Source: Clostridia bacterium (lineage in GTDB: Bacteria; Bacillota; Clostridia; Christensenellales; JBMNLC01). From it: DNA of 64,000 bases. The notes under the pieces were generated by a model. It saw only the letters and a program-made list of their open reading frames with translations. It searched no databases and was not told the origin of the DNA. Below, piece by piece: positions 1,024 through 41,499 of this stretch. The first letter of the stretch is position 1. Each line of letters opens with the position of its first letter. The stretch is taken from positions 102,437-166,436 of the forward strand of contig JBMNLC010000004.1 in NCBI GenBank assembly GCA_050952525.1. The letters are read 5' to 3'. Position numbers and translations under genes: made by a program.

Positions 1024-1066
1024 TAATTAGAAAGTTCGTATATTATTGAAGAAGGGGGTCATGTTC

Positions 1067-2548
1067 ATGAGAAACATTCCTGATGTAAAGCTAGGGCTTG
1101 TGGCGGTAAGCAGGGACTGCTTCCCATTGGAGCTTAGCAAGAGAAGGAGTGAAGCGGTGGTTTCCGCCTGCAGAAGCAAGGGGATTGAGATTTTTCAGAC
1201 TCCGACGATTGTTGAAAACGAGAAGGATGTATTGAAAGCCTTGGAAGAGTTGAAGAATGCAGGGGTAAATGGGCTGGTGGTTTATTTGGGGAACTTTGGA
1301 CCGGAAGGCCCGGAAACCATGCTGGCTCAGAAATTCGACGGTCCTGCTATGTATGTTGCAGCAGCTGAGGAAACCCAGGATGATCTGATCGATGGACGTG
1401 GTGATGCATTCTGTGGTATGCTGAATGCTTCCTATAATCTGGCATTAAGGGAGCTGACTCCTTACATTCCCGAATATCCGGTGGGAACGGCTGAGGAGAT
1501 TGCCGACATGATATTCGATTTTCAGGATATCGCCAGGGTCATTATAGGGATTTCAAAACTTAAAATATTTGGTTTCGGACCAAGGCCTCAGGATTTTCTC
1601 GCATGCAATGCACCCATCAAGCCCTTGTATGATTTAGGGGTGGAAATCATGGAGAATTCTGAACTGGATCTATTCGAGTCCTTTAATGAGCATGCCGGTG
1701 ATGAAAGAATCCCGGCCGTCGTGCAGGATATGGAAGAGGAACTGGGGGATGGAAACAATCATCCGGGCATTCTACCTAAGTTAGCCCAATTTGAACTTAC
1801 CTTGCTGGATTGGATGGAAAAGCATATCGGGGCATCCGAATTTGCCGTATTCGCCAACAAATGCTGGCCGGCCTTCGAGAGGCAATTCGGTTTTGTTCCT
1901 TGCTATGTCAATTCAAGATTAGCCGCCAGGGGAATACCGGTTTCCTGTGAAGTGGATATCTATGGAGCTTTGAGTGAATACATCATTACATGCGCTACGA
2001 AAATGCCCGCTACCCTTTTGGATATCAACAATACCGTACCCAAGGATATGTATGATTCCAATCGGGATCGTTTTGCCGGCTATAAACTGAGTGACCTTTT
2101 TATGGGCTTCCACTGCGGGAACACGCCCATATGCTGTATGAAGGAAGCAGCTATGAAGTATCAGTTGATTCAGCATCGATTACTGGAACCCGATAAGGAA
2201 CCCGATATTACCCGGGGAACTTTGGAAGGGATCATCAGACCAGGTGAGATCACCCTTTTCAGGCTGCAGGGCACAGCAGACTGTGCTTCAAGAAGTTATG
2301 TAGCGCAGGGTGAGATTATTGACGTGGATCCAAAATCCTTCGGCGGAATAGGCGTGTTTGCCGTCAAGGAAATGGCAAGATTCTATCGCCATGTATTGAT
2401 CGGCAGGCATTATCCCCATCACGCCGGGGTCGGCTTCAAGCATGCAGGGAAGGTACTGTTTGCTGCGATGAAGATGCTGGGGATAGAAGAAGTATCCTTT
2501 AACCAGCCGACTTCCATGCTGTATAAGAATGAAAACCCATTCGGATAA
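1067..2548 (+). CDS. L-fucose/L-arabinose isomerase family protein (probable pentose/deoxyhexose aldose-ketose isomerase)
   Basis: ORF 1046..2548, ~490 aa with FucI/AraA-like layout. RBS GAAGGGGG (1051-1058) favours the ATG at 1067. Lies directly upstream of ribulokinase. Confidence 0.75.
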   Translation: MRNIPDVKLGLVAVSRDCFPLELSKRRSEAVVSACRSKGIEIFQTPTIVENEKDVLKALEELKNAGVNGLVVYLGNFGPEGPETMLAQKFDGPAMYVAAAEETQDDLIDGRGDAFCGMLNASYNLALRELTPYIPEYPVGTAEEIADMIFDFQDIARVIIGISKLKIFGFGPRPQDFLACNAPIKPLYDLGVEIMENSELDLFESFNEHAGDERIPAVVQDMEEELGDGNNHPGILPKLAQFELTLLDWMEKHIGASEFAVFANKCWPAFERQFGFVPCYVNSRLAARGIPVSCEVDIYGALSEYIITCATKMPATLLDINNTVPKDMYDSNRDRFAGYKLSDLFMGFHCGNTPICCMKEAAMKYQLIQHRLLEPDKEPDITRGTLEGIIRPGEITLFRLQGTADCASRSYVAQGEIIDVDPKSFGGIGVFAVKEMARFYRHVLIGRHYPHHAGVGFKHAGKVLFAAMKMLGIEEVSFNQPTSMLYKNENPFG

Positions 2549-2729
2549 GACACGAAGGTGCATTGGATCCAGATAATGCAGATATGGCAGAAGATAATAC
2601 TATACAGGAGAAATACATGGCGGGAGTGTTTTAAAGCGTGCAGGTGAATCTCGGCGACCGGTTTTATCAGAAGCTTATCCTAAGGAAAGAGTTAAAAATA
2701 GTCAGCAGATGGAAAGGAAGGAATGATCG

Positions 2730-4406
2730 TTGAGCAAAAAATATACAATCGGTGTAGACTTTGGCACCCAATCCGGAAGGGCGGTGCTGGTGGAAGTGGA
2801 CATCGGGGTAGAGGTTGCCACAGCTATAAAGGAGTACCCCCATGGTGTGATGGACGAATACCTTCCGGATGGGAAGACGAAATTGGATCCTGATTGGGCT
2901 CTGGAGCATCCTCAGGATTTCCTGGATGTGCTCCATGAAACGATACCGGCTGTTCTGGAAAAGGCTGGAGTATCTGCAGAAGACGTGATAGGTGTAGGGA
3001 TCGATTTTACCTCATGTACCATGCTTGCTGTGGACAAGGAAGGTACTCCCCTTTGTTTTTATCCGGAGTATCAGTCCAATCCCCATGCCTATGTAAAACT
3101 ATGGAAGCACCATGCCGCTCAGGATGAGGCAAACAAACTGAATCAGATTGCTGAAGAGAGAGGCGAAGATTTTCTTCAGCGCTATGGCGAGAAGATTTCA
3201 TCCGAATGGCTTTTTCCTAAAATATGGCAGGTACTTGATGAAGCCCCGGAGATTTATGAAAAGGCTGATCGATTCATGGAGCTGGCGGACTGGATCGTTC
3301 TTCAATTAACGGGGGAGGAAAAAAGAAACAGCTGTACCGCCGGCTATAAAGCCCTCTGGCATAAACAAAAGGGATATCCATCCAAGGATTTCTTTAAGGC
3401 CCTTGATCCAAGGCTCGAGAACGTAGTAGAAGAGAAATTAAGTACGGATATTTATCCCATTGGAAGCAAAGCAGGCGAAATTACTCCGGAGGCAGCCCGT
3501 CTGACAGGACTAAAACCGGGGACTGCCGTTGCCGTTGGTAATGTTGACGCCCATGTAGCGGTTCCTGCCGTAGGGATTACGGAAGAAGGAAAAATGCTGA
3601 TGATTATGGGTACCTCTACCTGCCATATGATATTGGGGAAGGAAGAGAAGATGGTACCAGGTATATGCGGTGTGGTAGAAGATGGAATCATCCCCGGCTA
3701 TCTGGGATATGAAGCAGGTCAATCCTGCGTGGGCGACCATTTTGAATGGTTCGTGGAGAATTATGTGCCTGCTGAGTATCAAAAAGAAGCGGAAGAGAGG
3801 GGCATGAATATCCACGATCTTCTGAGCGAAAAGGCACAGAAACTGAAAGTTGGGGAAAGCGGTTTAATCGCCCTCGACTGGTGGAACGGTAACCGTTCCG
3901 TCCTTGTGGATGTGGATCTCACAGGCCTTATTCTGGGATGCACTTTATTGACCAAGCCCGAAGAGATGTACAGGGCTTTAATCGAAGCCACCGCATATGG
4001 TACACGGAAGATTATTCAAACCTTTGAAGATCATGGTGTGCCGATCAAAGAACTGTATGCAGCGGGCGGAATTGCTGAAAAGAACGAAATGCTGATGCAG
4101 ATTTATGCGGATGTAACCAATCGGGAAATCCGGATTTCTGCTTCTTCCCAGACTCCTGCTCTGGGTTCAGCCATGTTTGGCGCTGTTGCGGCGGGTAAGG
4201 AAAGGGGCGGATATGACAGCATTGTTGATGCAGCCAAGGCAATGGCCCGGTTGAAGGATAAGGTGTATAAGCCCATACCTGAGAATGTAGAAATGTATGA
4301 TAAATTATACAGGGAATATGAGATACTCCACGATTATTTTGGACGAGGGACGAACGACGTAATGAAAAGACTGAAGGAGATCAAGAAACAGGTTACGAAG
4401 TCCTAA
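2730..4406 (+). CDS. araB: Ribulokinase (FGGY family)
   Basis: 558 aa. N-terminus [17 protein letters not shown] is typical of Gram-positive AraB; length and C-terminal FGGY domain fit. TTG start with an AAGGAAGGA RBS. Confidence 0.85.
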
Positions 4407-4524: not shown

Positions 4525-5481
4525 ATGAAGAGGAAAGAAGTGGTTAAACGGGCGGTAGAGATGAGGAATCCTCCCAGGGTTCCAATTTTATTCTTTAATA
4601 AGGATACGGAGAAATCGGAAATTAAACTGGTGGGATACGAAACGGCTGCCGATTTTCCCTATAAGGGAACCAACATCTCAGAGTGGGGTTTTGAATGGCA
4701 AAGGTTGGATGATACCATGGGGCAGCCGAAAAACCATCCCATTCGGACATGGGCGGATTTTGAAAACTACATACCGCCCGATCCTGATGCAGCCGGCAGG
4801 TTTGAGCATCTGCCTGATGAAATCGCCCAAAACAAGGATCGCTACATCCTGGCGAGCCTGGGGATTACAGGATTCAACATGGTGACTTTCATACGAGGAT
4901 TTGAAAATACCTTGGAGGATTTATACCTGAACAGGGAGAGAATTGAGAAGTTGATAGACATGGTGTTTTCCTTTGAAAAGGGAATTATCCGTCATTACTG
5001 CAGTTACGAAATCGATGGCATCTCCTTCGGTGATGATTGGGGTACCCAGAACAGCCTGATGATTTCGCCTTCCCTATGGGGAAAGATTTTCAAACCCCGG
5101 TATAAGGAGCAGTTTGATCTGGTTCACTCCTATGGGAAGCATGTCTATTTCCATTCCTGCGGAAACATCATGGAGATCATTCCCGATCTCATTGAGATCG
5201 GAGTTGACATTCTGAATTTAAATCAGCCTGATTTGTTTGGGATTGAAAGATTGGGCCGTGAATATGGTGGGAAGGTTTGCTTTAATTGCCCTGTGGATCA
5301 TCAGACGGTTGCCATCAAGGGTACACGGGATGAGATATTTGATTATGTGAGAAGGCTGAATCAACATCTGGGTAGCTTTCAAGGAGGATTTATCGGTTAT
5401 ATCGAGGAATACCATAGTGTGGGAATGAGCGATCAAAACTATGCGTGGATTGTAGAAGCCTTTGAGACTTTGAACGGATGA
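4525..5481 (+). CDS. Uroporphyrinogen decarboxylase (URO-D)-like family protein, paralog 1
   Basis: 318 aa. URO-D/MtaA-like core FGDDWGTQNSLMISP...YFHSCGNIMEIIPDLIEIGVDILNLNQP. AGGGGGA RBS. Confidence 0.8.
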   Translation: MKRKEVVKRAVEMRNPPRVPILFFNKDTEKSEIKLVGYETAADFPYKGTNISEWGFEWQRLDDTMGQPKNHPIRTWADFENYIPPDPDAAGRFEHLPDEIAQNKDRYILASLGITGFNMVTFIRGFENTLEDLYLNRERIEKLIDMVFSFEKGIIRHYCSYEIDGISFGDDWGTQNSLMISPSLWGKIFKPRYKEQFDLVHSYGKHVYFHSCGNIMEIIPDLIEIGVDILNLNQPDLFGIERLGREYGGKVCFNCPVDHQTVAIKGTRDEIFDYVRRLNQHLGSFQGGFIGYIEEYHSVGMSDQNYAWIVEAFETLNG

Positions 5482-5493
5482 GGATGTGATGGA

Positions 5494-6621
5494 ATGAATT
5501 ATCGAGAACGGTTTGAGGCCACTTTGGAGCATAGGCCCTTGGACCGTGTTCCCTTTGATTTGGCGGGCACTTCACTGACGGGAATGGAACATAAGTATTC
5601 TATTGATAAATTAAGGGAATATCTTGGATTTACTCGCTCCTATGACGGGTGGTATGAAAAATTTGATGAACGAATCCTTCAGTATCTGGACATTGACATC
5701 AGGAGGGTAGGGGATATCCTGGAGCCCGAGAGCCCTTTGTCAGGCCGGATCGATGAGAATACTTATGTAGACTGTTGGGGGATAAAACGGGTATTTACCG
5801 GTTTGTACTGGGATATTCAGGATCCACCTTTAAAGGGAGCGGATCTTGATGATCTGAAAAGATATCCATGGCCGGATCCTGACAGAATTGATATAAAAAA
5901 AATGGAAGCATATAGGGAACAGGCCAAGCGCTTATACCTGGAAACAGATTACGTGGTTTGTGCAGAGCATCCGGTCTATGGTGTGCTGGAGCTGGGCTGT
6001 TGGATGTGCGGTTTTGACGATTTTCTGCTAAAGATGGCTCTGGATCCGTCCTTTGTACGGCATTTTTTTGATAAGGTTTTGGAGTATCAAAAGAAGATTA
6101 TCGAAATTTATTACGGTGCGCTGGGTGAATACATCCACTTTACAACCAGTGGGGATGATTTCGGTACCCAGACAGGCCCCTTTATGTCTCCTCAAATGTT
6201 TGAAACGCTGGTAAAACCTTATTATGAAGAAAGGATTGCTTACACGAAAAAGTTTACCAAAGCTCGATATTTTCACCATACCTGCGGTTCTGTATACTCC
6301 CTGATTCCCCATTTGATTGGTGCGGGAGTGAACATCCTTAATCCTATTCAGCCCGGAGCCAGGGATATGGAACCGGAGAAGCTGAAGAAGGCGTATGGAG
6401 ATCAATTGACTTTCTGGGGAGGCATAGATACCCAGCATACCCTTCCCTATGGGACGAAGGAAGAAGTGAAAGAAGAGGTGTGGAGAATCCTGGACGCCAT
6501 GGGAGCGGAAAGAGGTGGATATGTCCTGGCTCCGGCCCATAATATCCAGCCCGATGTGCCTCCGGAAAACATCATTGCCCTCTTCGAAGCAGGAAGGGAA
6601 TATTTTTCCCAGAGGCAATAA
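5494..6621 (+). CDS. URO-D-like family protein, paralog 2
   Basis: 375 aa. SGDDFGTQTGPFMSPQMF...FHHTCGSVYSLIPHLIGAGVNILNPIQP, the same subtype as paralog 1. Confidence 0.8.
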   Translation: MNYRERFEATLEHRPLDRVPFDLAGTSLTGMEHKYSIDKLREYLGFTRSYDGWYEKFDERILQYLDIDIRRVGDILEPESPLSGRIDENTYVDCWGIKRVFTGLYWDIQDPPLKGADLDDLKRYPWPDPDRIDIKKMEAYREQAKRLYLETDYVVCAEHPVYGVLELGCWMCGFDDFLLKMALDPSFVRHFFDKVLEYQKKIIEIYYGALGEYIHFTTSGDDFGTQTGPFMSPQMFETLVKPYYEERIAYTKKFTKARYFHHTCGSVYSLIPHLIGAGVNILNPIQPGARDMEPEKLKKAYGDQLTFWGGIDTQHTLPYGTKEEVKEEVWRILDAMGAERGGYVLAPAHNIQPDVPPENIIALFEAGREYFSQRQ

Positions 6622-6769: not shown

Positions 6770-7774
6770 ATGACAAGTCGAGAGCGTTTTTTAAAGGTAC
6801 TGCACTTTGAAAAGCCGGATGACAGGTTGCCTATGGTGGAATGGGCTCCGTGGTGGGATAAGACAATTGAGCGCTGGGAGCAGGAAGGGCTGCCCAGAGG
6901 GATGAGTCTGGAGGAATCCCTTCGGTATTTTGACTTAGATGTCATGATCATGCTGATGGCTTCCCCCATGTCTCCGGAATGTCCCAGACCTTCATCCCAT
7001 GGGGCAGGAATCGTCACGGACGAAAGATCCTACGAAGCGATAAGGCCTTACCTATACCCGAAATCATCTATTGAGAGCTTGAAAAAAACAGCTCTGGCCC
7101 TGAAGGAGCGGCATGAAAAGGGCGATATCATCATTCGTTTATGGCTGGATGGATTTTTTTGGTTTCCCAGATCTCTTTTTGGTATTGAGAATCATTTATA
7201 TGCCTTTTATGATTATCCGGAATTAATGCACCGCATGAATAATGATTTGTCAGATTACCTGATTCAAACCATAGAAGCCCTCTGCCCAATCCTGGTACCG
7301 GACATGGTAGGCTTTGCCGAGGATATGTCATACAATCACGGCCCCATGCTGTCATACGGGTTATTCAAAGAATTCTTGCTCCCCTATTATCAGAAGGTTA
7401 TCCCTTATCTCCGAGAAGCGGGGGTCAAGGTTCTGGTGGACAGTGATGGAAACATTGAAGATATGATACCTTGGATGTTGGAAGCCGGAATAGAAGGGGT
7501 GTACCCGCTGGAAAGACAGGCACAGGTCGATATCAAACGAATCCGTAGAAATTATCCGAGCTTTCTGATGATGGGCGGTTATGATAAGATGGTGATGTCA
7601 AAAGGGGAAGGGGCCATGCGGGCAGAGTTTGAGCGCATCCTTCCGGTGATGAAATCCGGAGGCTATATTCCTTCGGTGGATCATCAGACTCCGCCGGGCG
7701 TTTCCTTGGAAAACTACAATATTTATCTCCGGTTGTTCAAGGAATATGCACGAAAGGCTGTGAAGGAAGTCTGA
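6770..7774 (+). CDS. URO-D-like family protein, paralog 3 (second subtype)
   Basis: 334 aa. FAEDMSYNHGPMLS...GGYIPSVDHQTPP, clearly homologous to the ORF at 19518. Confidence 0.8.
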   Translation: MTSRERFLKVLHFEKPDDRLPMVEWAPWWDKTIERWEQEGLPRGMSLEESLRYFDLDVMIMLMASPMSPECPRPSSHGAGIVTDERSYEAIRPYLYPKSSIESLKKTALALKERHEKGDIIIRLWLDGFFWFPRSLFGIENHLYAFYDYPELMHRMNNDLSDYLIQTIEALCPILVPDMVGFAEDMSYNHGPMLSYGLFKEFLLPYYQKVIPYLREAGVKVLVDSDGNIEDMIPWMLEAGIEGVYPLERQAQVDIKRIRRNYPSFLMMGGYDKMVMSKGEGAMRAEFERILPVMKSGGYIPSVDHQTPPGVSLENYNIYLRLFKEYARKAVKEV

Positions 7775-7809
7775 ACGCCTCCGGCAGAATAAAAGAGTGC
7801 ACAACTTTT

Positions 7810-7836
7810 CTTGCAGTCAGCTGCAAGATTTTTTTT
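7810..7836 (+). terminator. Rho-independent terminator
   Basis: CTTGCAG-tcag-CTGCAAG hairpin followed by a T8 run. Confidence 0.75.
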
Positions 7837-7994
7837 GCTGATTCCCCGACAGGATGGCATATCTATTATAACGGTCAGAGTATGATTCTATAATAAGGAT
7901 ATGATGATAGGATTTCTTTGCCCGACTGGGAGGGCTGCCGGTTTTTGACATCATATTCGAGCTGTTATGGATAATAAAGGAAATATTGCGCAGG

Positions 7995-8023
7995 TTGACA
8001 TGCCAAAACATGAAGCATATAAT
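7995..8023 (+). promoter_or_regulatory. Consensus sigma-A promoter for the deoC-oxidoreductase operon
   Basis: Perfect TTGACA (7995-8000), 17-nt spacer, TATAAT (8018-8023). Leaves a ~105-nt leader before the deoC ATG. Confidence 0.7.
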
Positions 8024-8133
8024 GGACGTATACATACAAAATTTGGATGAATCCACAGAGTATCTTCGAGAAGATGCGATACCGGAAAAGGATAGGACAA
8101 GAAGGATCCGGATACTTGAGAGGAGGTCAGGTC

Positions 8134-8823
8134 ATGCTAAGCGTGAAAGATTTGGCGAAGATGATTGATCATTCCCTGCTGAGACCGGAACTGACCGTTG
8201 ATCAGGTAAGAGAAGGTTGCAGGCTTGCAAAGAAATATGGTACGGCATCGGTGTGTGTGAGGCCTTGTGATGTAGCCATTGCCAAAGAGGAACTGGAAGG
8301 CACTGATGTTTTGGTCACAACAGTTATTGGTTTTCCCCTCGGGGACAATACAACGGAAGTCAAGGTGTTTGAAACCGAACAAGCCATACGGGACGGAGCC
8401 CAAGAAGTGGATATGGTTTTAAATATTGGCAGACTTATCTCTCGTGACTTTGATTACGTGGAAAAGGATATTAAAGCCGTGGTAGATCTAGCCCATCAGA
8501 ATGGGGTCCTTGTCAAGGTCATTCTGGAGAATTGTTATTTGACCGATGACTTGAAAGAAGCTGCGTGCAGAATATCTGAAAAAGCGGGAGCAGATTTTGT
8601 TAAGACATCTACTGGCTTTGGTACAGGGGGTGCAACGGTCGAGGACATCAGACTAATGCGAAAAAACTGCAGCCCCAAAGTGAAGATAAAAGCTGCAGGT
8701 GGTATTCGAACTTATGACGCCGCACTGGCTGTATGGAAAGAAGGCGCAGTGCGATTGGGAGCAACCGCCACCAAGGCTATTCTTGAGGAAGCCAAAAAGA
8801 GAGAAGAGCTAGGGGGACAATGA
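8134..8823 (+). CDS. deoC: Deoxyribose-phosphate aldolase
   Basis: ORF 8047..8823. GGAGG RBS then ATG at 8134. IDHSLLRP, VCV.P and the Schiff-base lysine context ADFVKTSTGF are DeoC hallmarks. Confidence 0.85.
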   Translation: MLSVKDLAKMIDHSLLRPELTVDQVREGCRLAKKYGTASVCVRPCDVAIAKEELEGTDVLVTTVIGFPLGDNTTEVKVFETEQAIRDGAQEVDMVLNIGRLISRDFDYVEKDIKAVVDLAHQNGVLVKVILENCYLTDDLKEAACRISEKAGADFVKTSTGFGTGGATVEDIRLMRKNCSPKVKIKAAGGIRTYDAALAVWKEGAVRLGATATKAILEEAKKREELGGQ

Positions 8824-8877
8824 GAAACAGGCAGCGCGGAAAACCTGCAGCAAAAAGATGGGGGGAGACAAGAGAAA

Positions 8878-9903
8878 ATGGAAAAACTGCGCGTGGCAAT
8901 TATCGGGTGTGGAGCCATTCATAGGGTGCATGCCGATGCAATCGTGAACAGTGAGTTGGCTCAACTGAAATATGTTGTGGATATTCAGGCAGACAATGCT
9001 CGTAGTTCCGGAGAAAAGTACAGATGTCAATGGTACACGGACTATAAAGAAATCTTACAAAAAGATGATGTGGATGTCGTACATATCTGTACACCCCATT
9101 ATTTACATGCCGACATGACCATCCATGCCGTTCAATCAGGCAAGCATGCCTTTGTGGAAAAACCCGTGGTGTCGCATTGGAAGCAGGCTCGGGAACTGAT
9201 AGAAGAAACGAAGAAAAGCGGCTGTTATGTAGGAGTATGTTTTCAAAACCGCTTGAATCCCAGTTCGGTAAAGGCAAAGGAGATTCTTGACAGTGGCAGA
9301 CTGGGGAGAATATTGGGCATCAAGGGTCTGGTAACATGGTATAGGGATGAAGCATACTATCGGGAGAGCGGATGGAGGGGCTTTTTTGCTACTGAAGGAG
9401 GCGGAGTCCTCATCAACCAGTCCATCCATACTCTGGACCTTATGCAGTGGTTAGGCGGAGGCGTAGAAGCCGTAATAGGGAATGTCGCCACTAGGATACT
9501 GGGGAATGTCATTGAAGTAGAGGACACCGCAGATGCCACCCTGTTCTTCCGGAACGGAGCCAGGGGAATTTTCTATGCCACCAACTGCTATACGACCAAT
9601 TCCCCCGTAGAGATAGAAGTACATTGTGAAAAGGGGAGCTTACGGATTTATAATGGGGAGCTGTATATAATCAGCGATGGCCGGCAAACCAAGATTGTCG
9701 ATGAAAATTGTGAGGACAGCCCCTATAGATCCTACTGGGGAAAGAGTCATTCCTTGGCTATTCATAGTTTTTACCAAAGTATTCTTCATGATGAACCTAA
9801 GAATTTTATACCTGTAGAACAGGGAGTAGAAGCTGTAAAGATCATCGATGCCATTTACAAATCGTCTTCTACAGGTAATAAAATAATAATAAAAAATGAA
9901 TAA
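8878..9903 (+). CDS. Gfo/Idh/MocA family oxidoreductase
   Basis: 341 aa. N-terminal Rossmann LRVAIIGCGAIH and the EKP motif (AFVEKPV). Confidence 0.85.
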   Translation: MEKLRVAIIGCGAIHRVHADAIVNSELAQLKYVVDIQADNARSSGEKYRCQWYTDYKEILQKDDVDVVHICTPHYLHADMTIHAVQSGKHAFVEKPVVSHWKQARELIEETKKSGCYVGVCFQNRLNPSSVKAKEILDSGRLGRILGIKGLVTWYRDEAYYRESGWRGFFATEGGGVLINQSIHTLDLMQWLGGGVEAVIGNVATRILGNVIEVEDTADATLFFRNGARGIFYATNCYTTNSPVEIEVHCEKGSLRIYNGELYIISDGRQTKIVDENCEDSPYRSYWGKSHSLAIHSFYQSILHDEPKNFIPVEQGVEAVKIIDAIYKSSSTGNKIIIKNE

Positions 9904-9919
9904 GGATGAGGTGAAGGAT

Positions 9920-10693
9920 ATGAGTCAACCGGTAATTGCTGCGCAACTTTTTACCATTCGGGATTATACGGAAACCCCTGAAGATATTGCCCAAAGTATG
10001 AAAAAGATCAAGGAAATGGGCTATAATGCCGTGCAGGTTTCGGGATTCGGTCCCATTGAGCATCAACAGGTGAAGGATATCATGGACAGTCAAGGTCTCA
10101 CCATTTGTGCTACCCATATTGGATTTGACCGCCTGCAAAATGATCTGGAGGATGTCATTGAACAGCATAAGCTGTGGAATTGCAAATATGTGGGTCTGGG
10201 CAGTATGCCGGCCGAATACGCAACAAGCAGAGATGGCTATATCGCTTTCGCCAAGGAGGCTTCCGAGATTGCCCGGAAGCTGGCCGACAATGGCCTCCGC
10301 TTTATTTACCATAACCATCATTTCGAGTTTATGAAGTTCGATGGGGTAACGGGAATGGAAATTCTTTTTGAGGAAACAGACCCGGAGGTCTTTGACTTTG
10401 AGCTTGATACATATTGGATCCAGGCAGGGGGAGCCAACCCTGTAGACTGGATATATAAAGTCAAGGGTCGTATGAAGGTGATCCACTTTAAGGACATGGG
10501 AGTAAGTAGTGAGAGACAGGTCATCATGACCGAGGTTGGTGAGGGAAACCTGAATTGGCCTGCCATTATTCAGGCGTGTAAAGAAACGGGTGTGGAATGG
10601 TGTCCTGTGGAGCAGGATATCTGCCAGCGAAATCCCTTTGAAAGCCTGGCGATCAGCCTGGAGAATTTAAAGAAGCTTGGCTTGCAGGCATGA
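9920..10693 (+). CDS. Sugar phosphate isomerase/epimerase (xylose-isomerase-like TIM barrel)
   Basis: ORF 9896..10693. RBS GAGGTGA favours the ATG at 9920. ~257 aa with the AP-endonuclease-2/xylose-isomerase-like pattern (YNHHFEF...D.YW...H.KD). Confidence 0.75.
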   Translation: MSQPVIAAQLFTIRDYTETPEDIAQSMKKIKEMGYNAVQVSGFGPIEHQQVKDIMDSQGLTICATHIGFDRLQNDLEDVIEQHKLWNCKYVGLGSMPAEYATSRDGYIAFAKEASEIARKLADNGLRFIYHNHHFEFMKFDGVTGMEILFEETDPEVFDFELDTYWIQAGGANPVDWIYKVKGRMKVIHFKDMGVSSERQVIMTEVGEGNLNWPAIIQACKETGVEWCPVEQDICQRNPFESLAISLENLKKLGLQA

Positions 10694-10725
10694 GGACATC
10701 GTGAAAGCCCAAGGGAGGTATGAGA

Positions 10726-11583
10726 ATGAAACGTTTTATCCTGTCTGCATTTGCAGATGAGATTGATGCTGACCTGACAATGCAGATAGATGTACTGGAG
10801 CAGCATGATATTCGATATATCGAAATGAGGGGCGTAAACGGAAAAAATCTGGTGGACTATTCCATCGATGAAGTGAAAGAGATTAAAGAACAATTGGAAA
10901 GTCGCGGCTTTAAAATCTCCGCTATCGGCTCCCCAATCGGAAAGATTGGGATTCGTGATGATTTTGCTCCCCATCTGGCCCTGTTCAAGCATACTTTAGA
11001 GATCGCTCAAATAATGGAAACGAACTACATCCGGATGTTCAGTTTCTTCATGCCCAAGGGGGAGAATCCCGATCAATACAGAGATCAGGTCATAGAGCGC
11101 TGGAGAGAGTTTGTAAAAGCTGCAGAAGGAAAGGGGATTACTCTGCTCCATGAGAATGAGAAGGGTATATATGGTGATACGCCGGAACGCTGCCTGGATT
11201 TACTCGAGACTTTGTCCTGCGATTACGTGAAGGCTACCTTTGATCCGGCTAACTTTGTCCAGTGTGATGTGGAGACATATCCCCGTGCTTTTCAAATGCT
11301 GAAGGATCATATTGTCTACCTGCATATTAAGGATGCCCTGTACAGCAATCACCAGGTTGTTCCTTCAGGTCATGGTGACGGGAAGATAAAGGAAATTCTT
11401 ACAGCACTGTGGAATATGGGATTTGAAGGCTTCCTTTCTCTTGAGCCCCACTTGGGTAATTTCGAAGGCTTTGCTGCACTGGAGCCGGGGACACCGGCTG
11501 CTGATTTGCCCGAATGTGGACCCAGGCAGTTTGCCATAGCAGCCCATGCACTGAAAAAAATAATCTCTGAGCTGGAAAGGTAG
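10726..11583 (+). CDS. Sugar phosphate isomerase/epimerase (xylose-isomerase-like TIM barrel), second copy
   Basis: ORF 10720..11583. GGGAGG RBS 7 nt before the ATG at 10726. LHENE...FDPANF...LHIKD...LSLEPH metal-ligand pattern. Confidence 0.8.
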   Translation: MKRFILSAFADEIDADLTMQIDVLEQHDIRYIEMRGVNGKNLVDYSIDEVKEIKEQLESRGFKISAIGSPIGKIGIRDDFAPHLALFKHTLEIAQIMETNYIRMFSFFMPKGENPDQYRDQVIERWREFVKAAEGKGITLLHENEKGIYGDTPERCLDLLETLSCDYVKATFDPANFVQCDVETYPRAFQMLKDHIVYLHIKDALYSNHQVVPSGHGDGKIKEILTALWNMGFEGFLSLEPHLGNFEGFAALEPGTPAADLPECGPRQFAIAAHALKKIISELER

Positions 11584-11592
11584 GGGAGAATC

Positions 11593-12753
11593 GTGGATAA
11601 GGTTAGAATCGGTATTATCGGAATCGGTAATATGGGAAGCGGACATATGGAGTATCTGTTGGCAGGTGAAGTCCCCAATGCAGAACTGACAGCAGTATGC
11701 GATATTAAACCGGAGCGGTTAAGATGGGCTAAAGAGCGGTTAGGCGATAAGATACGATACTTTGATAACGCAGAAGCCTTAATGGATTCTAAGGCAGTGG
11801 ACGGTGTCCTTATTGCTACTCCCCATTATGATCACCCGATCCTGGCTATCGAAGCATTTAAGAGGGGCCTACATGTGTTGGCGGAAAAACCGGCAGGGGT
11901 ATATACCAAGAAGGTTGCCGAGATGAATGAAGCTGCAAAAAAAAGCGGCAAGGTTTTTGGGATCATGTACAACCAGCGAACCAATCCCCTGTATCAAAAA
12001 TTCAGAGATTTGGTAAAATCGGGGGAACTGGGAGAAATAAAGCGAACGAACTGGATTATCACCGATTGGTATCGATCACAGAGTTACTATGATTCCGGTG
12101 GATGGAGGGCTACCTGGAAAGGAGAAGGCGGAGGAGTTCTTCTCAATCAGTGTCCCCACAACCTGGATTTGTGGCAGTGGATTTGTGGAATGCCCGTTCG
12201 GGTGAGGGCTTTCTGTTCCTATGGCAAATACCATGATATCGAAGTTGAGGACGATATGACCGCATATGTGGAATATGAAAACGGTGCAACAGGGGTTTTT
12301 ATCACTTCTACAGGAGAAGCCCCGGGGACCAATCGTTTTGAAGTGACCGGTGATCGCGGAAAAATTGTTCTGGAAGACGGCAAACTGACATTTTGGAGGC
12401 TGCGTGTATCGGAGAGGCAGTTTAATCGCGAATATAAAGGGGGATTCGGAAGCCCTGAATGTTGGCGCTGTGATATTCCCGTCAGAGGAGTGGAAACAGC
12501 CCATAAAGGGATCACCACCGATTGGGTGAAGGCTATCCTGAAGGGCACACCATTGCTGGCACCGGGGGTAGAAGGCATCAATGGGCTTACGATCTCCAAT
12601 GCCATGCATCTGTCCTCCTGGCTTGATGCATGGGTGGATATCCCCTTTGATGAAGATCTCTTCTATGAAAAGCTTCAGGAAAAAATAAAAAGCTCTACTT
12701 TTCAGAAAAAAACCGATGGGAATAAACTATTGGACGTTGAAGGAACGTTCTAG
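11593..12753 (+). CDS. Gfo/Idh/MocA family oxidoreductase
   Basis: 386 aa, GTG start after an AGGGGAG RBS. VRIGIIGIGNMG Rossmann motif and VLAEKP motif. Confidence 0.85.
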   Translation: MDKVRIGIIGIGNMGSGHMEYLLAGEVPNAELTAVCDIKPERLRWAKERLGDKIRYFDNAEALMDSKAVDGVLIATPHYDHPILAIEAFKRGLHVLAEKPAGVYTKKVAEMNEAAKKSGKVFGIMYNQRTNPLYQKFRDLVKSGELGEIKRTNWIITDWYRSQSYYDSGGWRATWKGEGGGVLLNQCPHNLDLWQWICGMPVRVRAFCSYGKYHDIEVEDDMTAYVEYENGATGVFITSTGEAPGTNRFEVTGDRGKIVLEDGKLTFWRLRVSERQFNREYKGGFGSPECWRCDIPVRGVETAHKGITTDWVKAILKGTPLLAPGVEGINGLTISNAMHLSSWLDAWVDIPFDEDLFYEKLQEKIKSSTFQKKTDGNKLLDVEGTF

Positions 12754-12763
12754 CTTTCATGTG

Positions 12764-12806
12764 CAAAACGGAATGGATACCGCTTAAAGGCATCTATTCC
12801 GTTTTG
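12764..12806 (+). terminator. Probable terminator of the deoC-oxidoreductase operon
   Basis: CAAAACGGAAT (12764-12774) pairs with ATTCCGTTTTG (12796-12806). The T tract is weak. Confidence 0.5.
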
Positions 12807-13057
12807 TCCGTACTGGACAATTTTATGCGATGGAAACGAAACGGAAACCAAGCTGTACCCCGATATATTCCTCAATTGCAACGCTTAACCGGAAAATGCT
12901 GGGCGTTTATAGGATGCGAGTCTATTTCACAAGATAAGCGAGGTATGTTGTGTACGGATGGATTTATGGATTTTTTGGCTACAATTGCGGTTTGGGAAAG
13001 ATCAAAGGACAATTCGCATATGAATAGAATAATTCATAAGTTTTAGGGGGGATATGT

Positions 13058-13252
13058 TTGAAACACTGGACAGCTCAGGATTATATCCGTAATATTTGTG
13101 AAGGTTCGCCATGCGCAGGACAGGTAAAAACCTATAAATTATCCGAGGAAGAGAGGCAGGCTATCATTGCCAAGTACGGTCCTCCGAAAGGAAAGCCGGG
13201 AAGGGTTTCAAACTTTGACATAAAAAGGAAGAAAGATAGAAGCTTGAGGTAA
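13058..13252 (+). CDS. Small hypothetical protein (64 aa, basic C-terminus)
   Basis: TTG start 6 nt after a GGGGGG run, followed by a strong terminator. No family recognised. Confidence 0.3.
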   Translation: MKHWTAQDYIRNICEGSPCAGQVKTYKLSEEERQAIIAKYGPPKGKPGRVSNFDIKRKKDRSLR

Positions 13253-13291
13253 CCTAAAAAGATATTTTTCCTACTCGTATGGAAAGGTACA

Positions 13292-13327
13292 GCAAAGGGT
13301 GCTTTACGTCTGTAAAGCACCCTTTGC
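13292..13327. terminator. Bidirectional terminator
   Basis: Perfect 16-bp stem GCAAAGGGTGCTTTAC / GTAAAGCACCCTTTGC with a 4-nt loop, between convergent genes. Confidence 0.8.
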
Positions 13328-13342
13328 TTGTCATGGATCGGG

Positions 13343-14512
13343 TTATAGGAAAGCCTCGCGGGCTTCTTTGATCATCTCAGGGATATTGAGCTTGTATTCA
13401 CACCAGGGGAGGCATTCGCCGCATTCGATGCATTCCTGCATATCGTATTTTTTCTCCTTGTACTGTTCGGAGAAGGCTGATGTTTCCTTGCCCAGTCGTT
13501 TACTGATTGTATAACGGGAATATATTGATAGTATCCCGGGAAAATCGACTTCCTGAGGACATGAGAATTTTTCCAGACAGTGCATACACTCACGGCATAC
13601 ATCCCGCATACTGGGGGCTACTTTATCCGCTTCCTGAATCAGAAGCGACAATTTCTCCGGGCTCATCCGCTCTCTGCAGGCAGTTTCAATGTTCATCTCC
13701 ATCTGTCGGATGGAGGTTGCACCGGCATCCACAGTTGTAATATAGGGGTTGCAAAGGCAAAAGTCCAACATGGCGGGATAATCAATCGAGATGTATTCCT
13801 TGAGTATATTATAGATAGGAGGCATACTGTTGCCGCTAAAAGCCTTCATGTTAACAATACCAATGTCCTTCTTATATAGATACTCGAAAATGTTAACAGG
13901 ATTATCCTCACTTAGAGAGCGATTGAACACATTGTAAGGGAGTTCCACTACCTCGAAGATCCCTGTATCAGTGGCTGCCATGATCTCCTCCGTATCATGG
14001 TAATGGCTGGAGAATCCGATGTGGTTGATATAGCCATCTTTCTTCAGTTCTTGAATTCTGTCCAGCACGCCCGATTTAAGCATAGTCGTCCAACGATCCT
14101 TGTTGATGCCGTGGAAAAAATACACCAGCTTAATATCCTTGTCACCGATCTTCAGATCACCCTGCCCTTCTATTCCCAGCTTACCCCGGCTTGTAAACAA
14201 ATCGGCTTCCAAATCCTCCAGTGTATATCCGTGGCCTTTTGTAACGATTACAATGGGTTCGCTCAGATGCGGATGGTTACGGATAGCTTTTCCAACCAGG
14301 ACTTCGCTTTCGACCAGCGCCCCTTCATCATTATGCCCTTTGTATGCTCTTGCAGTATCCACCAGATTGATTCCCTGGCCGAGCACAAAGTGAAGTAACT
14401 GCTCGGCTTCATCAACCGTATTCATGATTCTAAGGTTCATCGCTCCGAAGCTCAGCTCAGTTACCCAAAGATTGGTTCGACCTAGCCGTCTTCTTTTGAT
14501 TTCCCGTTTCAT
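13343..14512 (-). CDS. Aldo/keto reductase with C-terminal Cys-rich (Fe-S-type) domain
   Basis: ORF 13343..14623. AGAGGGGTGA RBS before the ATG at 14512 (MKREIKRRRLGRTNL). AKR core followed by CRECMHC...C and CIECGEC...C cysteine clusters. Confidence 0.8.
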   Translation of the reverse strand: MKREIKRRRLGRTNLWVTELSFGAMNLRIMNTVDEAEQLLHFVLGQGINLVDTARAYKGHNDEGALVESEVLVGKAIRNHPHLSEPIVIVTKGHGYTLEDLEADLFTSRGKLGIEGQGDLKIGDKDIKLVYFFHGINKDRWTTMLKSGVLDRIQELKKDGYINHIGFSSHYHDTEEIMAATDTGIFEVVELPYNVFNRSLSEDNPVNIFEYLYKKDIGIVNMKAFSGNSMPPIYNILKEYISIDYPAMLDFCLCNPYITTVDAGATSIRQMEMNIETACRERMSPEKLSLLIQEADKVAPSMRDVCRECMHCLEKFSCPQEVDFPGILSIYSRYTISKRLGKETSAFSEQYKEKKYDMQECIECGECLPWCEYKLNIPEMIKEAREAFL

Positions 14513-14755
14513 CACTATATCACCCCTCTTTGCTTCTATGTATATTTTACCATATATAGATCTTTTCCGGTACCACATAATTGTCCATACCGGACGGTTA
14601 GGCCGGAAAGGATGGCTATCCATATGCCTGATAGAATCTTTAAAGGAAATGGGGACTGAAATGTAGAATGTTAGATTTAGGATTTACATATGAATAGAAA
14701 GACTTGGAGTGCACCCATAGGGATCTGAATATCCAACGAACAGGGAAAGGGTGAG

Positions 14756-19517: not shown

Positions 19518-20678
19518 ATGGACCATCTAAATCCAAAGGATGGTATTCATGGAATGGTGCCTCGGGAAAAGATGAGCAAGGGTGCAAAAAAGCTACGAGA
19601 TTTCTATGAGAGAAAACCGGATGCACCGATCTATCAAACGGAATTCGGCTATTTTTGTCTGGAGCGCTGGAAGAAAGAGGGACATATTGATGATCACACC
19701 GATCTGGCCGAATTATTTGGATACGATGAGCCAGGCAATCACAGCCTTGGGCAACTTGGCTGGTGTGAAGCTGCCTTTTACCCTGAATTTGAAGTGAAAG
19801 TCCTGGAGGACCGTGGTGAATATGAGTTGGTCCAGGATCATGCCGGCAGACACCTCCTCTGCTTTAAGGGAAGAAGGCAAGGGTTCATGCCCGAGTATAT
19901 TGACCATCCAGTCAAGGATATGAAGACCTGGGAAGAAAACTGCAAATGGCGCTTGAATTCAAAGACGGAGGAACGCTATAAGGACCTCGAAGAAAGGATG
20001 GTGCTTGCCAGGGAATGTGCAGGAAAGGGTATGATCATTACCCAAAATCTGATTGGAGGCTATATGTACCTGCGAAGTCTCATTGGACCGGTGGAGCTCT
20101 TATATAAGTTTTATGATGAACCGGAGCTTATCCATGACTGCATGAAGACCTGGCTGGAGCTGTCCGACGCTGTGATCGCACGGCATCAGGAGCATGTGAC
20201 CATTGATGAGATATTTATCGCAGAGGATATCTGTTATAATCATGGACCCTTGATCTCCCCGGAAATGATTAAGGAATTCCTGTTTCCGTATTACCAGCAG
20301 TTAATCAGCAATGTGAAAGCCCGCCAGATTGATAAAAGCCGTCATTTGTATTTTCAGGTGGATACAGATGGATATTCGGAGCCGGTTATCCCCTTATATC
20401 GTGAAATCGGTATGGACTATATGAGCCCTTTCGAGGTGGCAGCGGGTTGCAATGTGGTGAAAGTCGGGCAAGAGTATCCTGATTTGATTATAAGGGGTGG
20501 AATTGATAAGAGAGTGCTGGCGAAAGGAAAAGACGAGATTGACAGGCATATAGACAGCATCCTGCCGGTCATGAAACGGAGGGGAGGCTATATTCCTACT
20601 TGTGACCATGGAGTGCCGGAGGAGGTTTCTTTTGAAAATTACATGCATTTTCGCAAAAGGCTTCAGGGGTTTGCTTGA
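19518..20678 (+). CDS. URO-D-like family protein, paralog 4
   Basis: 386 aa. IAEDICYNHGPLISPEM...GGYIPTCDHGVPE, homologous to the ORF at 6770. Strong AAGGAGG RBS 18 nt after the sbcC stop. Confidence 0.8.
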   Translation: MDHLNPKDGIHGMVPREKMSKGAKKLRDFYERKPDAPIYQTEFGYFCLERWKKEGHIDDHTDLAELFGYDEPGNHSLGQLGWCEAAFYPEFEVKVLEDRGEYELVQDHAGRHLLCFKGRRQGFMPEYIDHPVKDMKTWEENCKWRLNSKTEERYKDLEERMVLARECAGKGMIITQNLIGGYMYLRSLIGPVELLYKFYDEPELIHDCMKTWLELSDAVIARHQEHVTIDEIFIAEDICYNHGPLISPEMIKEFLFPYYQQLISNVKARQIDKSRHLYFQVDTDGYSEPVIPLYREIGMDYMSPFEVAAGCNVVKVGQEYPDLIIRGGIDKRVLAKGKDEIDRHIDSILPVMKRRGGYIPTCDHGVPEEVSFENYMHFRKRLQGFA

Positions 20679-28931: not shown

Positions 28932-28937
28932 ATATGG

Positions 28938-29909: not shown

Positions 29910-29934
29910 TCACAATATGGATGGAGGAGCGAAA

Positions 29935-30969: not shown

Positions 30970-31006
30970 TTCATTACCATCAGAAATCGGAGAAGAGGAA
31001 TAAGGC

Positions 31007-33609: not shown

Positions 33610-33612
33610 ATC

Positions 33613-41251: not shown

Positions 41252-41499
41252 ATTCTGGCAATTACGGATTAGAACAATTGCAGGGTTACCCACAGAGAAT
41301 ATCCCGGAATCCGGTTTTCCGCTTCAATCCTATCTGTCAAAATCAAATTATAGTATATGAAGGCTTTTTGCCGATCTATGTAGTAAAATAAAACTGTGTC
41401 AGAAAAAGATATGAACATGCTGATAAGGGGGCAGTACCATATGATATCTGCCACGGCAAGCATATTGCCCCTGTCAGCTTGGTGGAAGGAGAGGATCAG

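Follow-up and report, generated by a model that had tools for sequence, protein, structure and literature searches.

The window analysed here, a 64-kb stretch of DNA, contains an operon in which positions 8878-12753 probably encode four cytoplasmic enzymes that cleave glycosides non-hydrolytically, a module of the P2B11 type. P2B11 is the Iso1-Oxido1-Oxido2-Iso2 glucuronide-cleaving cluster of a Collinsella-like gut bacterium, whose four enzymes hydrolyse alpha-, beta- and thio-glucuronides via 3-keto intermediates (Nasseri et al. 2024, bioRxiv 10.1101/2024.03.25.586180; PDB 8TDI). Judged by their protein sequences, four of the five genes of the operon form a clear relative of this known 2024 system and not a new pathway. 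The initial annotation had proposed a cassette that oxidises, eliminates, hydrates and reduces glycosides. This proposal is supported by four one-to-one homologues of the experimentally reconstituted P2B11 enzymes, and by the TIM barrel TIM1, which retains the complete active site seen in the structure of a 3-keto-O-glycoside beta-eliminase.

Features of the operon and its boundaries, with positions in the window
Feature	Coordinates	Strand	Description	Basis or remark
Hairpin and T-run	7809..7828	+	terminator-like, 5' boundary of the unit	ends the upstream URO-D gene
Promoter	7995..8023	+	sigma-70-type, perfect TTGACA-17-TATAAT	exact-match scan
Leader	8030..8133	+	probable 5' untranslated leader, ~105 nt	deoC start at 8134
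deoC	8134..8823	+	deoxyribose-phosphate aldolase, 229 aa, first gene of the transcription unit	TIGR00126
Gfo1	8878..9903	+	Gfo/Idh/MocA oxidoreductase, P2B11-Oxido2 counterpart	BLASTP vs L087
TIM1	9920..10693	+	AP_endonuc_2 TIM barrel, metal-dependent 3-keto-glycoside 1,2-lyase (beta-eliminase) by homology	probable start
TIM2	10726..11583	+	AP_endonuc_2 TIM barrel, metal-dependent, P2B11-Iso1 counterpart	probable start
Gfo2	11593..12753	+	Gfo/Idh/MocA, glycoside 3-dehydrogenase (probably for hexuronides), P2B11-Oxido1 counterpart	
Hairpin and T-run	12804..12830	+	terminator-like, 3' boundary of the unit, after the last gene	

Cassette proteins and their P2B11 counterparts

The P2B11 cluster was recovered as locus L087, in which protein P0241 shares 99% identity with 8TDI and the termini agree with the cloning primers listed in the supplementary information of the paper. 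Both systems have the same four protein types, and in BLASTP against L087 each cassette protein has one exclusive best match, with identities of 31-45%. Gfo2 pairs with P2B11-Oxido1 (45% over 392 aa, 1.6e-112), TIM2 with P2B11-Iso1 (39.5%, E 3e-70), Gfo1 with P2B11-Oxido2, its best reciprocal partner (37%, E 1e-64), and TIM1 with P2B11-Iso2 (31%, E 5e-40).

The match of Gfo2 to 8TDI, deposited as 'P2B11 glucuronide-3-dehydrogenase', has an E value of 1e-101, with the second-ranked chain at 7e-34. The Oxido1 pocket is conserved, as all six residues named by its authors (N147, W179, R181, Y185, N205 and H209) are identical in Gfo2. TIM1 has counterparts in P2B11-Iso2, AL1/BT1 and the Agrobacterium O-glycoside beta-eliminase AtOGE, the last of which is its closest sequence relative in the PDB (8BVK, E 4e-32; 8TCD/8TCS, 6e-20). 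The five AtOGE residues that serve as metal ligands or base (H132, H134, D163, H189 and E233) are all conserved in TIM1. Residues E143, D173, H200 and E240 of TIM2 are invariant, and the fold of its AlphaFold2 model (pLDDT 89) has no match beyond generic TIM epimerases and isomerases. [quoted passage not shown] The PDB neighbours of Gfo1 are sugar C3 dehydrogenases (WlbA, 8TDI and DgpA), and P2B11-Oxido2 is an auxiliary 3-dehydrogenase or 3-keto-sugar reductase.

Inspection of the four cassette sequences revealed no signal peptide-like N-terminus. Like P2B11, the module appears to be cytoplasmic and has neither a DUF1080 protein nor an adjacent regulator, and glucuronate catabolism genes are linked to relatives of both. 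However, the two differ in gene order (Gfo1-TIM1-TIM2-Gfo2 here, Iso1-Oxi1-Oxi2-Iso2 in P2B11), and Gfo2, with 386 aa, lacks the N-terminal insertion of P2B11-Oxido1. Members of the window-type Gfo2 family, from thermophilic and environmental Clostridia, Bacilli, Latescibacterota and others, share a constant 42-49% identity with Oxido1. They form a sister subfamily of their own, and its substrate specificity may therefore differ. Furthermore, L087 includes uxaC and a GPH-family transporter, neither of which is near the cassette in this window, whereas the operon described here includes deoC, which is not found beside P2B11.

Two other systems share parts of this scheme. The 3-keto-glycoside pathway of Alistipes AL1-4 and Bacteroides BT2156-2160 (PDB 8TCD, 8TCR, 8TCS and 8TCT) uses the same chemistry as proposed here, but it is periplasmic and has a DUF1080 protein as its alpha-lyase/hydratase, and the Gfo proteins of the cassette reach no more than 39-46 bits with the BT_2158 and BT_2159 families (cutoffs 650-750). 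The AtOGE/AtHYD/Gfo system of Agrobacterium tumefaciens (PDB 8BVK; PMC10628242) likewise assigns hydration to a second TIM barrel and reduction to a Gfo enzyme, but a flavoenzyme (GlycDH) carries out the initiating oxidation and the substrates are neutral beta-glucosides.

Transcription unit and deoC

As initially annotated, a perfect TTGACA-17-TATAAT promoter precedes five tightly packed genes, and no second exact match occurs in the 64 kb, where shuffled sequences predict 0.01. The hexamers and their spacing are kept exactly in a close relative (L082, Gfo2 93% identical) in which the spacer and flanks have diverged, and the upstream hairpin is conserved there as well. The five same-strand ORFs are arranged in the order deoC, Gfo1, the two xylose isomerase-like TIM barrels and Gfo2, with gaps of 54, 16, 32 and 9 nt, and the consensus promoter would drive the entire operon, including deoC. 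Three ORFs of the URO-D family lie upstream of the unit and a fourth lies downstream. At the 3' boundary, the hairpin itself occupies 12804-12820.

The most likely start codon of deoC is the ATG at 8134, which follows a GAGGAGG ribosome-binding site by 7 nt and is also chosen by the gene caller. The frame is open from 8047, but the extension from the ATG at that position is frameshifted by indels in L082. With this start, the transcript would carry the leader listed in the table, for which no Rfam match was found.

The presence of deoC raises the prospect that all five genes catabolise a deoxy-sugar glycoside, with aldol cleavage as the final step. The gene is co-oriented with Gfo1, lies directly behind the only strong promoter, is separated from Gfo1 by a gap in which a scan found no promoter- or terminator-like site, and holds its first position in the 93%-identity relative. 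Nevertheless, we consider a deoxy-sugar role for the five genes very unlikely. The coupling of deoC to the cassette, which the initial annotation had singled out, does not belong to the module as such, as deoC is absent beside it at all 80 of the other species-level loci, as well as in Caldicoprobacter oshimai and P2B11. Since the adjacency is confined to this lineage, a deoxy-sugar pathway or substrate is unsupported. Moreover, the protein scores as a canonical DERA equivalog (TIGR00126, 253 bits, cutoff 117), no step in the known cassette chemistry yields a 2-deoxy-pentose phosphate, and pdp, the natural partner of deoC, occurs 35-50 kb away in the same window together with a nucleoside-symporter-like MFS protein. 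Thus, deoC is probably an ordinary DERA gene that is operon-first in this lineage only, and is not a component of the pathway.

Levoglucosan, C-glycoside and inositol pathways

The four-part composition and the chemistry are identical to those of the levoglucosan (1,6-anhydroglucose) pathway of Bacillus smithii, in which LgdA, LgdB1, LgdB2 and LgdC (Gfo, TIM, TIM, Gfo) carry out oxidation, beta-elimination, hydration and reduction in a Mn2+-dependent manner (PMC7676230). The two Gfo proteins also match the levoglucosan dehydrogenase model and PDB 6A3F weakly. These scores are far from equivalence, with 117 and 77 bits against the NCBIfam LevoglcsnDh cutoff of 650, and E values of 8e-22 and 5e-17 to the LgdA structure 6A3F compared to 1e-101 for 8TDI; of the four Lgd enzymes, this comparison covered LgdA (by profile and 6A3F). 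In addition, the LacI regulator and ABC transporter of the lgd cluster (PMC7676230) have no adjacent equivalents here, the substrate of that pathway has an intramolecular 1,6-anhydro bridge, and the related AL/BT enzymes do not use levoglucosan. The Lgd enzymes, offered initially as an analogue, are thus distant relatives and not the closest ones, and a levoglucosan pathway seems most improbable.

The other proposed analogue, the C-glycoside deglycosidase system of the DgpA/DgpB-C type, likewise pairs an oxidation with a subsequent TIM-barrel lyase step, and Gfo1 matches the DgpA structures 7XR9 and 9M3D (E 4e-32 and 1e-25). However, TIM1 and TIM2 have no match to C-glycoside deglycosidase chains in the PDB at E <= 0.01, there is no gene for a small DgpB-like beta-subunit, AtOGE-type lyases, to which TIM1 belongs, are specific for O-glycosides (PMC10628242), and AL1/BT1 do not cleave 3-keto-C-glycosides. 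This kinship is again distant, and C-glycoside cleavage is scarcely to be expected. A fragment of inositol or other cyclitol catabolism (IolG, IolE, IolI and IolX) is just as implausible, even though IolG is the best NCBIfam name for both Gfo proteins and IolE for TIM1, and IolI is among the weak profile matches of TIM2. The Gfo proteins reach 146 and 113 bits against an IolG cutoff of 355, while TIM1 reaches 50 against 290 for IolE and scores higher, at 115 bits, to AtOGE. The initial annotation had allowed for iol-type TIM barrels beside an inositol operon; instead, the TIM barrels come nowhere near the thresholds for IolE and IolI, and there is no such operon, with no equivalogs of IolB, IolC, IolD, IolJ or IolA anywhere in the window. 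A distant cluster of aldolase and kinase genes is GatY/galactitol-like.

Substrates and predicted reaction sequence

Other species also have the four genes as a group, with varying order; at locus L019 it is the P2B11 order, TIM2-Gfo2-Gfo1-TIM1. Hexuronide substrates are supported because at least nine of ~75 species-level relatives carry the module beside glucuronate-catabolism genes (uxuA, uxaC and D-mannonate oxidoreductase). Specifically, 7 of 73 loci, as well as L080 and L062, have uxuA or uxaC at most 4 kb from the Gfo2 orthologue. UxuA passes its equivalog cutoff, and the neighbouring SDR passes that for D-mannonate oxidoreductase. The cassette described here has no adjacent uxaC, uxuA, transporter or regulator gene, and tblastn found neither uxaC nor uxuA across the 64-kb window. 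Sulfatases are encoded elsewhere in the window.

Homology and gene neighbourhood favour O-linked hexuronides (glucuronides) as the substrates over sugars with an anhydro or C linkage. The initial annotation had named an anhydro-, deoxy- or C-/O-linked sugar; of these, the O-linked option is the favoured one, and with deoC absent beside the module at 80 other loci a deoxy sugar is left unsupported. There is a smaller but appreciable chance that the same mechanism acts on other compounds, such as neutral O-glycosides, galacturonides, 6-sulfo- or 6-phospho-glycosides, plant or xylan-derived aldouronic acids, or S-glycosides. Gfo2 belongs to a subfamily distinct from Oxido1, related AL/BT enzymes are very broad, sulfatases are present in the window, and P2B11 itself also accepts 6-phospho, 6-sulfo and sulfoquinovoside substrates (bioRxiv 10.1101/2024.03.25.586180). 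Furthermore, uronate genes are absent within 4 kb at ~85% of related loci. In place of uxu/uxa genes, most related loci have AraC regulators, ABC permeases, other Gfo/TIM paralogues or enolase-superfamily acid-sugar dehydratases. Against this stand the linkage of uxuA, uxaC and a uxuB-type SDR to window-type orthologues, the fully conserved Oxido1 pocket, and the finding that P2B11-Oxido1 does not effectively oxidise glucosides (bioRxiv 10.1101/2024.03.25.586180).

For hexuronides, homology suggests a five-step route. Gfo2 with bound NAD+ would oxidise the C3 hydroxyl of the glycoside, which is most likely a glucuronide or another hexuronide in alpha or beta linkage. TIM1 and TIM2, dependent on Mn2+ or Co2+, would then abstract H2 and eliminate the aglycone to give a 2-hydroxy-3-keto-glycal. 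The P2B11 enzymes are activated by these metals and both Iso enzymes have eliminase activity (bioRxiv 10.1101/2024.03.25.586180); the roles assumed here for TIM1 and TIM2 follow the tentative pairing made in that paper. One TIM barrel, probably TIM2, would re-add water to form the 3-keto-uronate. Reduction of this 3-keto sugar to the free uronate would re-oxidise the enzyme-bound NADH, with Gfo1 as an auxiliary reductase or dehydrogenase. The free uronate may finally enter the UxaC/UxuB/UxuA route encoded elsewhere.

Relationship of the cassette to the P2B11 system

The oxidoreductase encoded by the last gene of the cassette, Gfo2, matches PDB entry 8TDI ("P2B11 glucuronide-3-dehydrogenase") with an E value of 1e-101, compared to 7e-34 for the next best chain, and we regard this match as decisive for the predicted identity of the cassette. 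The source of this structure, P2B11, is a human-gut fosmid found by a thio-glucuronide screen (Nasseri et al., bioRxiv 10.1101/2024.03.25.586180). The cluster of four genes on this fosmid (Iso1, Oxido1, Oxido2 and Iso2) cleaves beta-, alpha- and thio-glucuronides through C3 oxidation, elimination and hydration and acts more slowly on 6-phospho, 6-sulfo and sulfoquinovosyl glycosides. The activity is stimulated by Mn2+/Co2+ as well as by a 3-keto-sugar, which serves to re-oxidise the tightly bound NADH (10.1101/2024.03.25.586180). When the +10 numbering offset of the 8TDI construct is taken into account, all six pocket residues of Oxido1 (N147, W179, R181, Y185, N205 and H209) align with identical residues in Gfo2.

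The P2B11 cluster was recovered as a separate locus (L087). Its protein P0241 shares 99% identity with 8TDI, and the primers given for cloning in the supplementary information of the P2B11 paper fit the N and C termini of the four ORFs. In BLASTP comparisons with this locus, the window proteins form one-to-one, exclusive pairs: Gfo2 with Oxido1 (45% identity over 392 aa, E 1.6e-112), Gfo1 with Oxido2 (37%, E 1e-64), TIM2 with Iso1 (39.5%, E 3e-70) and TIM1 with Iso2 (31%, E 5e-40). Cross-pairs have E values above 0.1, and neither TIM barrel matches the partner of the other. The window therefore encodes together with Gfo2 the second, Oxido2-type Gfo protein and the two dissimilar TIM barrels that define a P2B11-type module.

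TIM1 matches the AL1/BT1 structures 8TCD, 8TCS and 8TCT (E ~1e-20), in agreement with the equation of Iso2 with AL1, a 3-keto-beta-glucoside 1,2-lyase, in the P2B11 supplementary information (10.1101/2024.03.25.586180). An even better match (E 4e-32) is to 8BVK, the Agrobacterium O-glycoside beta-eliminase AtOGE, whose metal ligands are His132, Asp163, His189 and Glu233 and whose catalytic base is His134 (PMC10628242). All five of these positions align with identical residues in TIM1. The counterpart of TIM2, Iso1, is treated as taking the functional place of the DUF1080 alpha-lyase/hydratase AL2 (10.1101/2024.03.25.586180). Sequence and profile searches of the PDB with TIM2 return only weak matches (MJ1311, Art22, AsbF and IolI), and a Foldseek search with its confident AlphaFold2 model (pLDDT 89) finds nothing but generic TIM-type epimerases and isomerases, with 13-17% identity, such that structure gives no function. 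The TIM2 family has an invariant Glu143-Asp173-His200-Glu240 set, as is usual for metal-dependent proteins with this fold.

On the basis of homology, the cassette is a relative (31-45% identity) of a system that was reconstituted and published in 2024. Homology and gene context together suggest that it would cleave glucuronides via a 3-keto intermediate, and the remaining uncertainty concerns the range of substrates within one mechanism. The oxidation-elimination route proposed in the initial annotation thus was essentially right, as all four proteins pair one-to-one with P2B11 enzymes. A literature search on 3-keto-glucuronides and glucuronide 3-dehydrogenases found only the study of Nasseri et al.

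Other pathways with a similar gene composition

The levoglucosan pathway shares both its chemistry and its composition with the cassette (PMC7676230), but Gfo1 and Gfo2, with 117 and 77 bits respectively, fall far short of the LgdA equivalog cutoff of 650 bits (NCBIfam NF052479 LevoglcsnDh). The comparison with the Lgd and Dgp systems covered LgdA and DgpA, through PDB and NCBIfam. Cleavage of C-glycosides by a DgpA oxidoreductase and a DgpB/DgpC lyase would involve a heteromeric enzyme in which a TIM-barrel alpha subunit is paired with a small beta subunit, whereas the operon has no gene for the latter. Moreover, neither TIM1 nor TIM2 matches a C-glycoside deglycosidase chain in the PDB at E <= 0.01, and lyases of the AtOGE/AL1 type do not cleave C-glycosides. 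The window proteins also differ from the Bacteroides glycoside 3-dehydrogenases BT2158 and BT2159 (NCBIfam NF058561 and NF058563), scoring 39-46 bits against cutoffs of 750 and 650. They lack a TAT or signal sequence, and no DUF1080 partner is encoded in the cassette.

Oxidoreductases and TIM barrels also occur together in myo-inositol catabolism (IolG, IolE and IolI with IolBCDJA), and the initial annotation had named inositol-type TIM barrels beside an iol operon as the finding that would overturn a glycoside pathway. However, the Gfo proteins score 146 and 113 bits against the IolG cutoff of 355, the IolE score is 50 bits against 290, and the window holds no IolB, IolC, IolD or IolJ equivalogs and no iol operon.

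Operon layout, deoC and neighbouring loci

The promoter and five ORFs are present as initially annotated (see table). The consensus promoter, with TTGACA and TATAAT hexamers separated by 17 nt, is the single exact match in the 64-kb window, where shuffled sequences lead to an expectation of 0.01. It is located in a 270-nt intergenic region, downstream of a terminator-like hairpin that closes the preceding URO-D-like gene. In the related locus L082, whose Gfo2 is 93% identical, both hexamers and their spacing are kept while the spacer and flanks have diverged. No convincing cre/CcpA site or operator palindrome was found at the promoter, and the leader of ~105 nt corresponds to no Rfam family (no match at E <= 1 in a scan of 7700-13400). 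The start codon of deoC is most probably at 8134 rather than 8047, given the GAGGAGG ribosome-binding site that precedes it, two independent gene calls, and indels that break the longer extension in L082. The five co-directional ORFs are separated by gaps of 54, 16, 32 and 9 nt. They are probably carried on one transcript, since there is no promoter- or terminator-like site between deoC and Gfo1.

Features of the window and of related loci. Coordinates are those of the window unless another locus is named.
Feature	Position	Strand	Remarks
Possible isomerase-kinase pair	1046-4406		Fucose-isomerase family, L-ribulokinase
URO-D/MtaA-like paralogue 1 (URO1)	4525-5481		
URO-D/MtaA-like paralogue 2 (URO2)	5494-6621		
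URO-D/MtaA-like paralogue 3	6770-7774		
Terminator-like hairpin	7809-7828		
Promoter	7995-8023	+	TTGACA-N17-TATAAT
deoC	start 8134 (most probable)	+	TIGR00126 equivalog
Gfo1	8878-9903	+	Gfo/Idh/MocA (Pfam, NCBIfam)
TIM1	third ORF, 3' of Gfo1	+	AP_endonuc_2 TIM barrel (Pfam, NCBIfam)
TIM2	fourth ORF, 5' of Gfo2	+	AP_endonuc_2 TIM barrel (Pfam, NCBIfam)
Gfo2	11593-12753	+	Gfo/Idh/MocA (Pfam, NCBIfam)
95-aa ORF	12759-13046		Directly 3' of Gfo2
Terminator-like hairpin	12804-12820		3' of Gfo2
Aldo/keto reductase	13343-14623	-	Convergent with operon
URO-D/MtaA-like paralogue 4	19518-20678		
Sugar/polyol operon	28074-34488		
Apparently split genes (three)	34647-35736, 38227-39517, 41479-42887		Overlapping/adjacent ORFs
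URO-D-like gene 3' of cassette	L083 (Caldicoprobacter oshimai) 7498-8520		
URO-D-like gene 3' of cassette	L004 12129-13115		
URO-D-like gene 3' of cassette	L005 5026-6012		
Third TIM barrel (cluster 6)	L083 6621-7388		Directly 3' of Gfo2

The deoC product is predicted to be a canonical DERA, with a score of 253.4 bits over the full TIGR00126 model (equivalog cutoff 117.3). Its gene adjoins the module only in the window lineage, represented by L001 (the same sequence) and L082. It is found beside the module at none of 80 other species-level loci, nor in C. oshimai, C. thermosuccinogenes or P2B11. Genes for a pyrimidine-nucleoside phosphorylase and for an MFS protein resembling nucleoside symporters lie 35-50 kb from deoC. 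We regard deoC as a lineage-specific passenger that heads the operon, and the deoxy-sugar substrate that had been proposed is therefore not supported.

Several other features of the window were noted. The 95-aa ORF that follows Gfo2 has no Pfam match and was called by the gene caller in L001, not in L082; it is probably not a gene because the second terminator-like hairpin falls inside it. The convergent aldo/keto reductase, which is kept in L082, has a C-terminal 4Fe-4S dicluster-like domain. Near the start of the window, a 500-aa fucose-isomerase-family protein (only Pfam match Fucose_iso_C; a weak 68 bits against the cutoff of 700 for the sulfoquinovose isomerase SftI) is encoded directly upstream of a bona fide L-ribulokinase (TIGR01234, 810 bits), and the two may be a non-canonical isomerase-kinase pair for L-arabinose or another pentose. 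A separate sugar/polyol operon encodes a HAD hydrolase, a GSU2086-family protein, PfkB and FGGY kinases, a galactitol-1-phosphate-dehydrogenase-like Zn-ADH and a GatY-like class II aldolase; this GatY/galactitol-like cluster is not an iol operon. Three genes appear to be split, one each for a Gfo/Idh/MocA oxidoreductase, an SBP_bac_5 binding protein and a sulfatase; either they are pseudogenes with frameshifts or the assembly is in error there.

Distribution, genomic context and biological significance

Gfo2 and TIM2 are members of extensive, well-conserved families, and thousands of database proteins match them. The best matches (67-83% identical) are from Caldicoprobacter, Petroclostridium and Pseudoclostridium and carry only generic annotation. 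A scan of one genome per species yielded at least 591 Gfo2 relatives, the best 80 of which are from Bacillota (Clostridia, Bacilli and Paenibacillus), Latescibacterota, Gemmatimonadota, Verrucomicrobiota and others. Each of the 80 is 42-49% identical to P2B11-Oxido1, which makes the window type a sister subfamily rather than a member of the same orthogroup. The gene order of the window recurs in C. oshimai and three other loci (L002, L004 and L005), one locus (L019) has the P2B11 order TIM2-Gfo2-Gfo1-TIM1, and elsewhere there are other permutations or subsets.

Clustering and annotation of module neighbours across the related loci revealed several frequent companions: AraC regulators at 16 loci, along with ABC permeases, extra Gfo and TIM paralogues, and glucuronate-pathway genes. 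Among the latter, UxuA scores above its equivalog cutoff, an SDR scores above the D-mannonate oxidoreductase cutoff, and UxaC is also present. At 7 of 73 loci, and also at L080 and L062, Gfo2 has uxuA or uxaC no more than 4 kb away, and linkage to uxuA, uxuB or uxaC is seen at no fewer than nine related loci. At L087, a GPH-family transporter and uxaC adjoin the P2B11 cluster. These neighbours of the relatives provide independent, partial support for a module that delivers free hexuronate. The authors of the P2B11 study remarked on the lack of a nearby transporter or regulator (10.1101/2024.03.25.586180), and the window cassette is similar in having no uronate gene, transporter or regulator beside it; tblastn found no remnant of uxuA or uxaC within the window. 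An enolase-superfamily neighbour at Latescibacterota loci was considered as ManD, scored below the cutoff, and was left out of the uronate evidence.

In 12 related loci, including C. oshimai, a third TIM barrel with weak similarity to D-psicose 3-epimerase and the 5-keto-L-gluconate epimerase IolO is encoded directly downstream of Gfo2. It is missing from the window, where tblastn found no remnant. In Pseudoclostridium thermosuccinogenes (L085/L086), genes for AraC, TIM2, Gfo2 and Gfo1 are followed by those for 6-phosphogluconate dehydrogenase, an SDR and an FGGY kinase, which suggests another downstream route for the released sugar acid; the third TIM barrel is there on the opposite strand.

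Four URO-D/MtaA-like paralogues occur within 20 kb, three upstream and one downstream of the cassette. URO1 and URO2 carry an H-x-C zinc motif, which is replaced by D-x-D in the last two. URO2, the paralogue queried against the PDB, yields no match, and the scanned window ORFs include no corrinoid protein. In C. oshimai and two MAGs (L004 and L005), one URO-D-like gene is located directly downstream of the cassette, although with so many paralogues this association could be coincidence. These proteins might nevertheless be functionally tied to the module, and some of them might remove the 4-O-methyl group from 4-O-methyl-glucuronosyl side chains of xylan, given that a free 4-OH is required by 3-keto enzymes of this type. 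We consider this proposal very unlikely. A literature search on 4-O-methyl-glucuronic acid demethylation found nothing beyond Nasseri et al. If true, it would give xylanolytic Clostridia a cytoplasmic, non-hydrolytic methyl-glucuronide route of unknown enzymology. In a weaker variant, deoC would be a genuine fifth step of the pathway, with a deoxy-sugar glycoside as substrate.

Returning to the cassette as a predicted glucuronide-cleaving module, the analysis points to no new type of pathway, and the coupling to deoC, its most unusual-looking feature, is not conserved. Recognition of the stepwise 3-keto "alternative glycosidase" pathway dates only from 2021-2024, and one gut fosmid is the sole characterised Gram-positive, uronide-specific example in the literature searched. 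Judged from the number of species-level genomes with a Gfo2 relative, all four enzymes belong to a sister subfamily that is very widespread, and several lineages couple the module to the catabolism of mannonate and glucuronate. The main value of these results is a concrete annotation for this uncharacterised subfamily, which includes thousands of proteins labelled "sugar phosphate isomerase/epimerase" or "Gfo/Idh/MocA oxidoreductase", and a source of thermophilic enzymes that could serve as catalysts against hydrolysis-resistant glucuronides.
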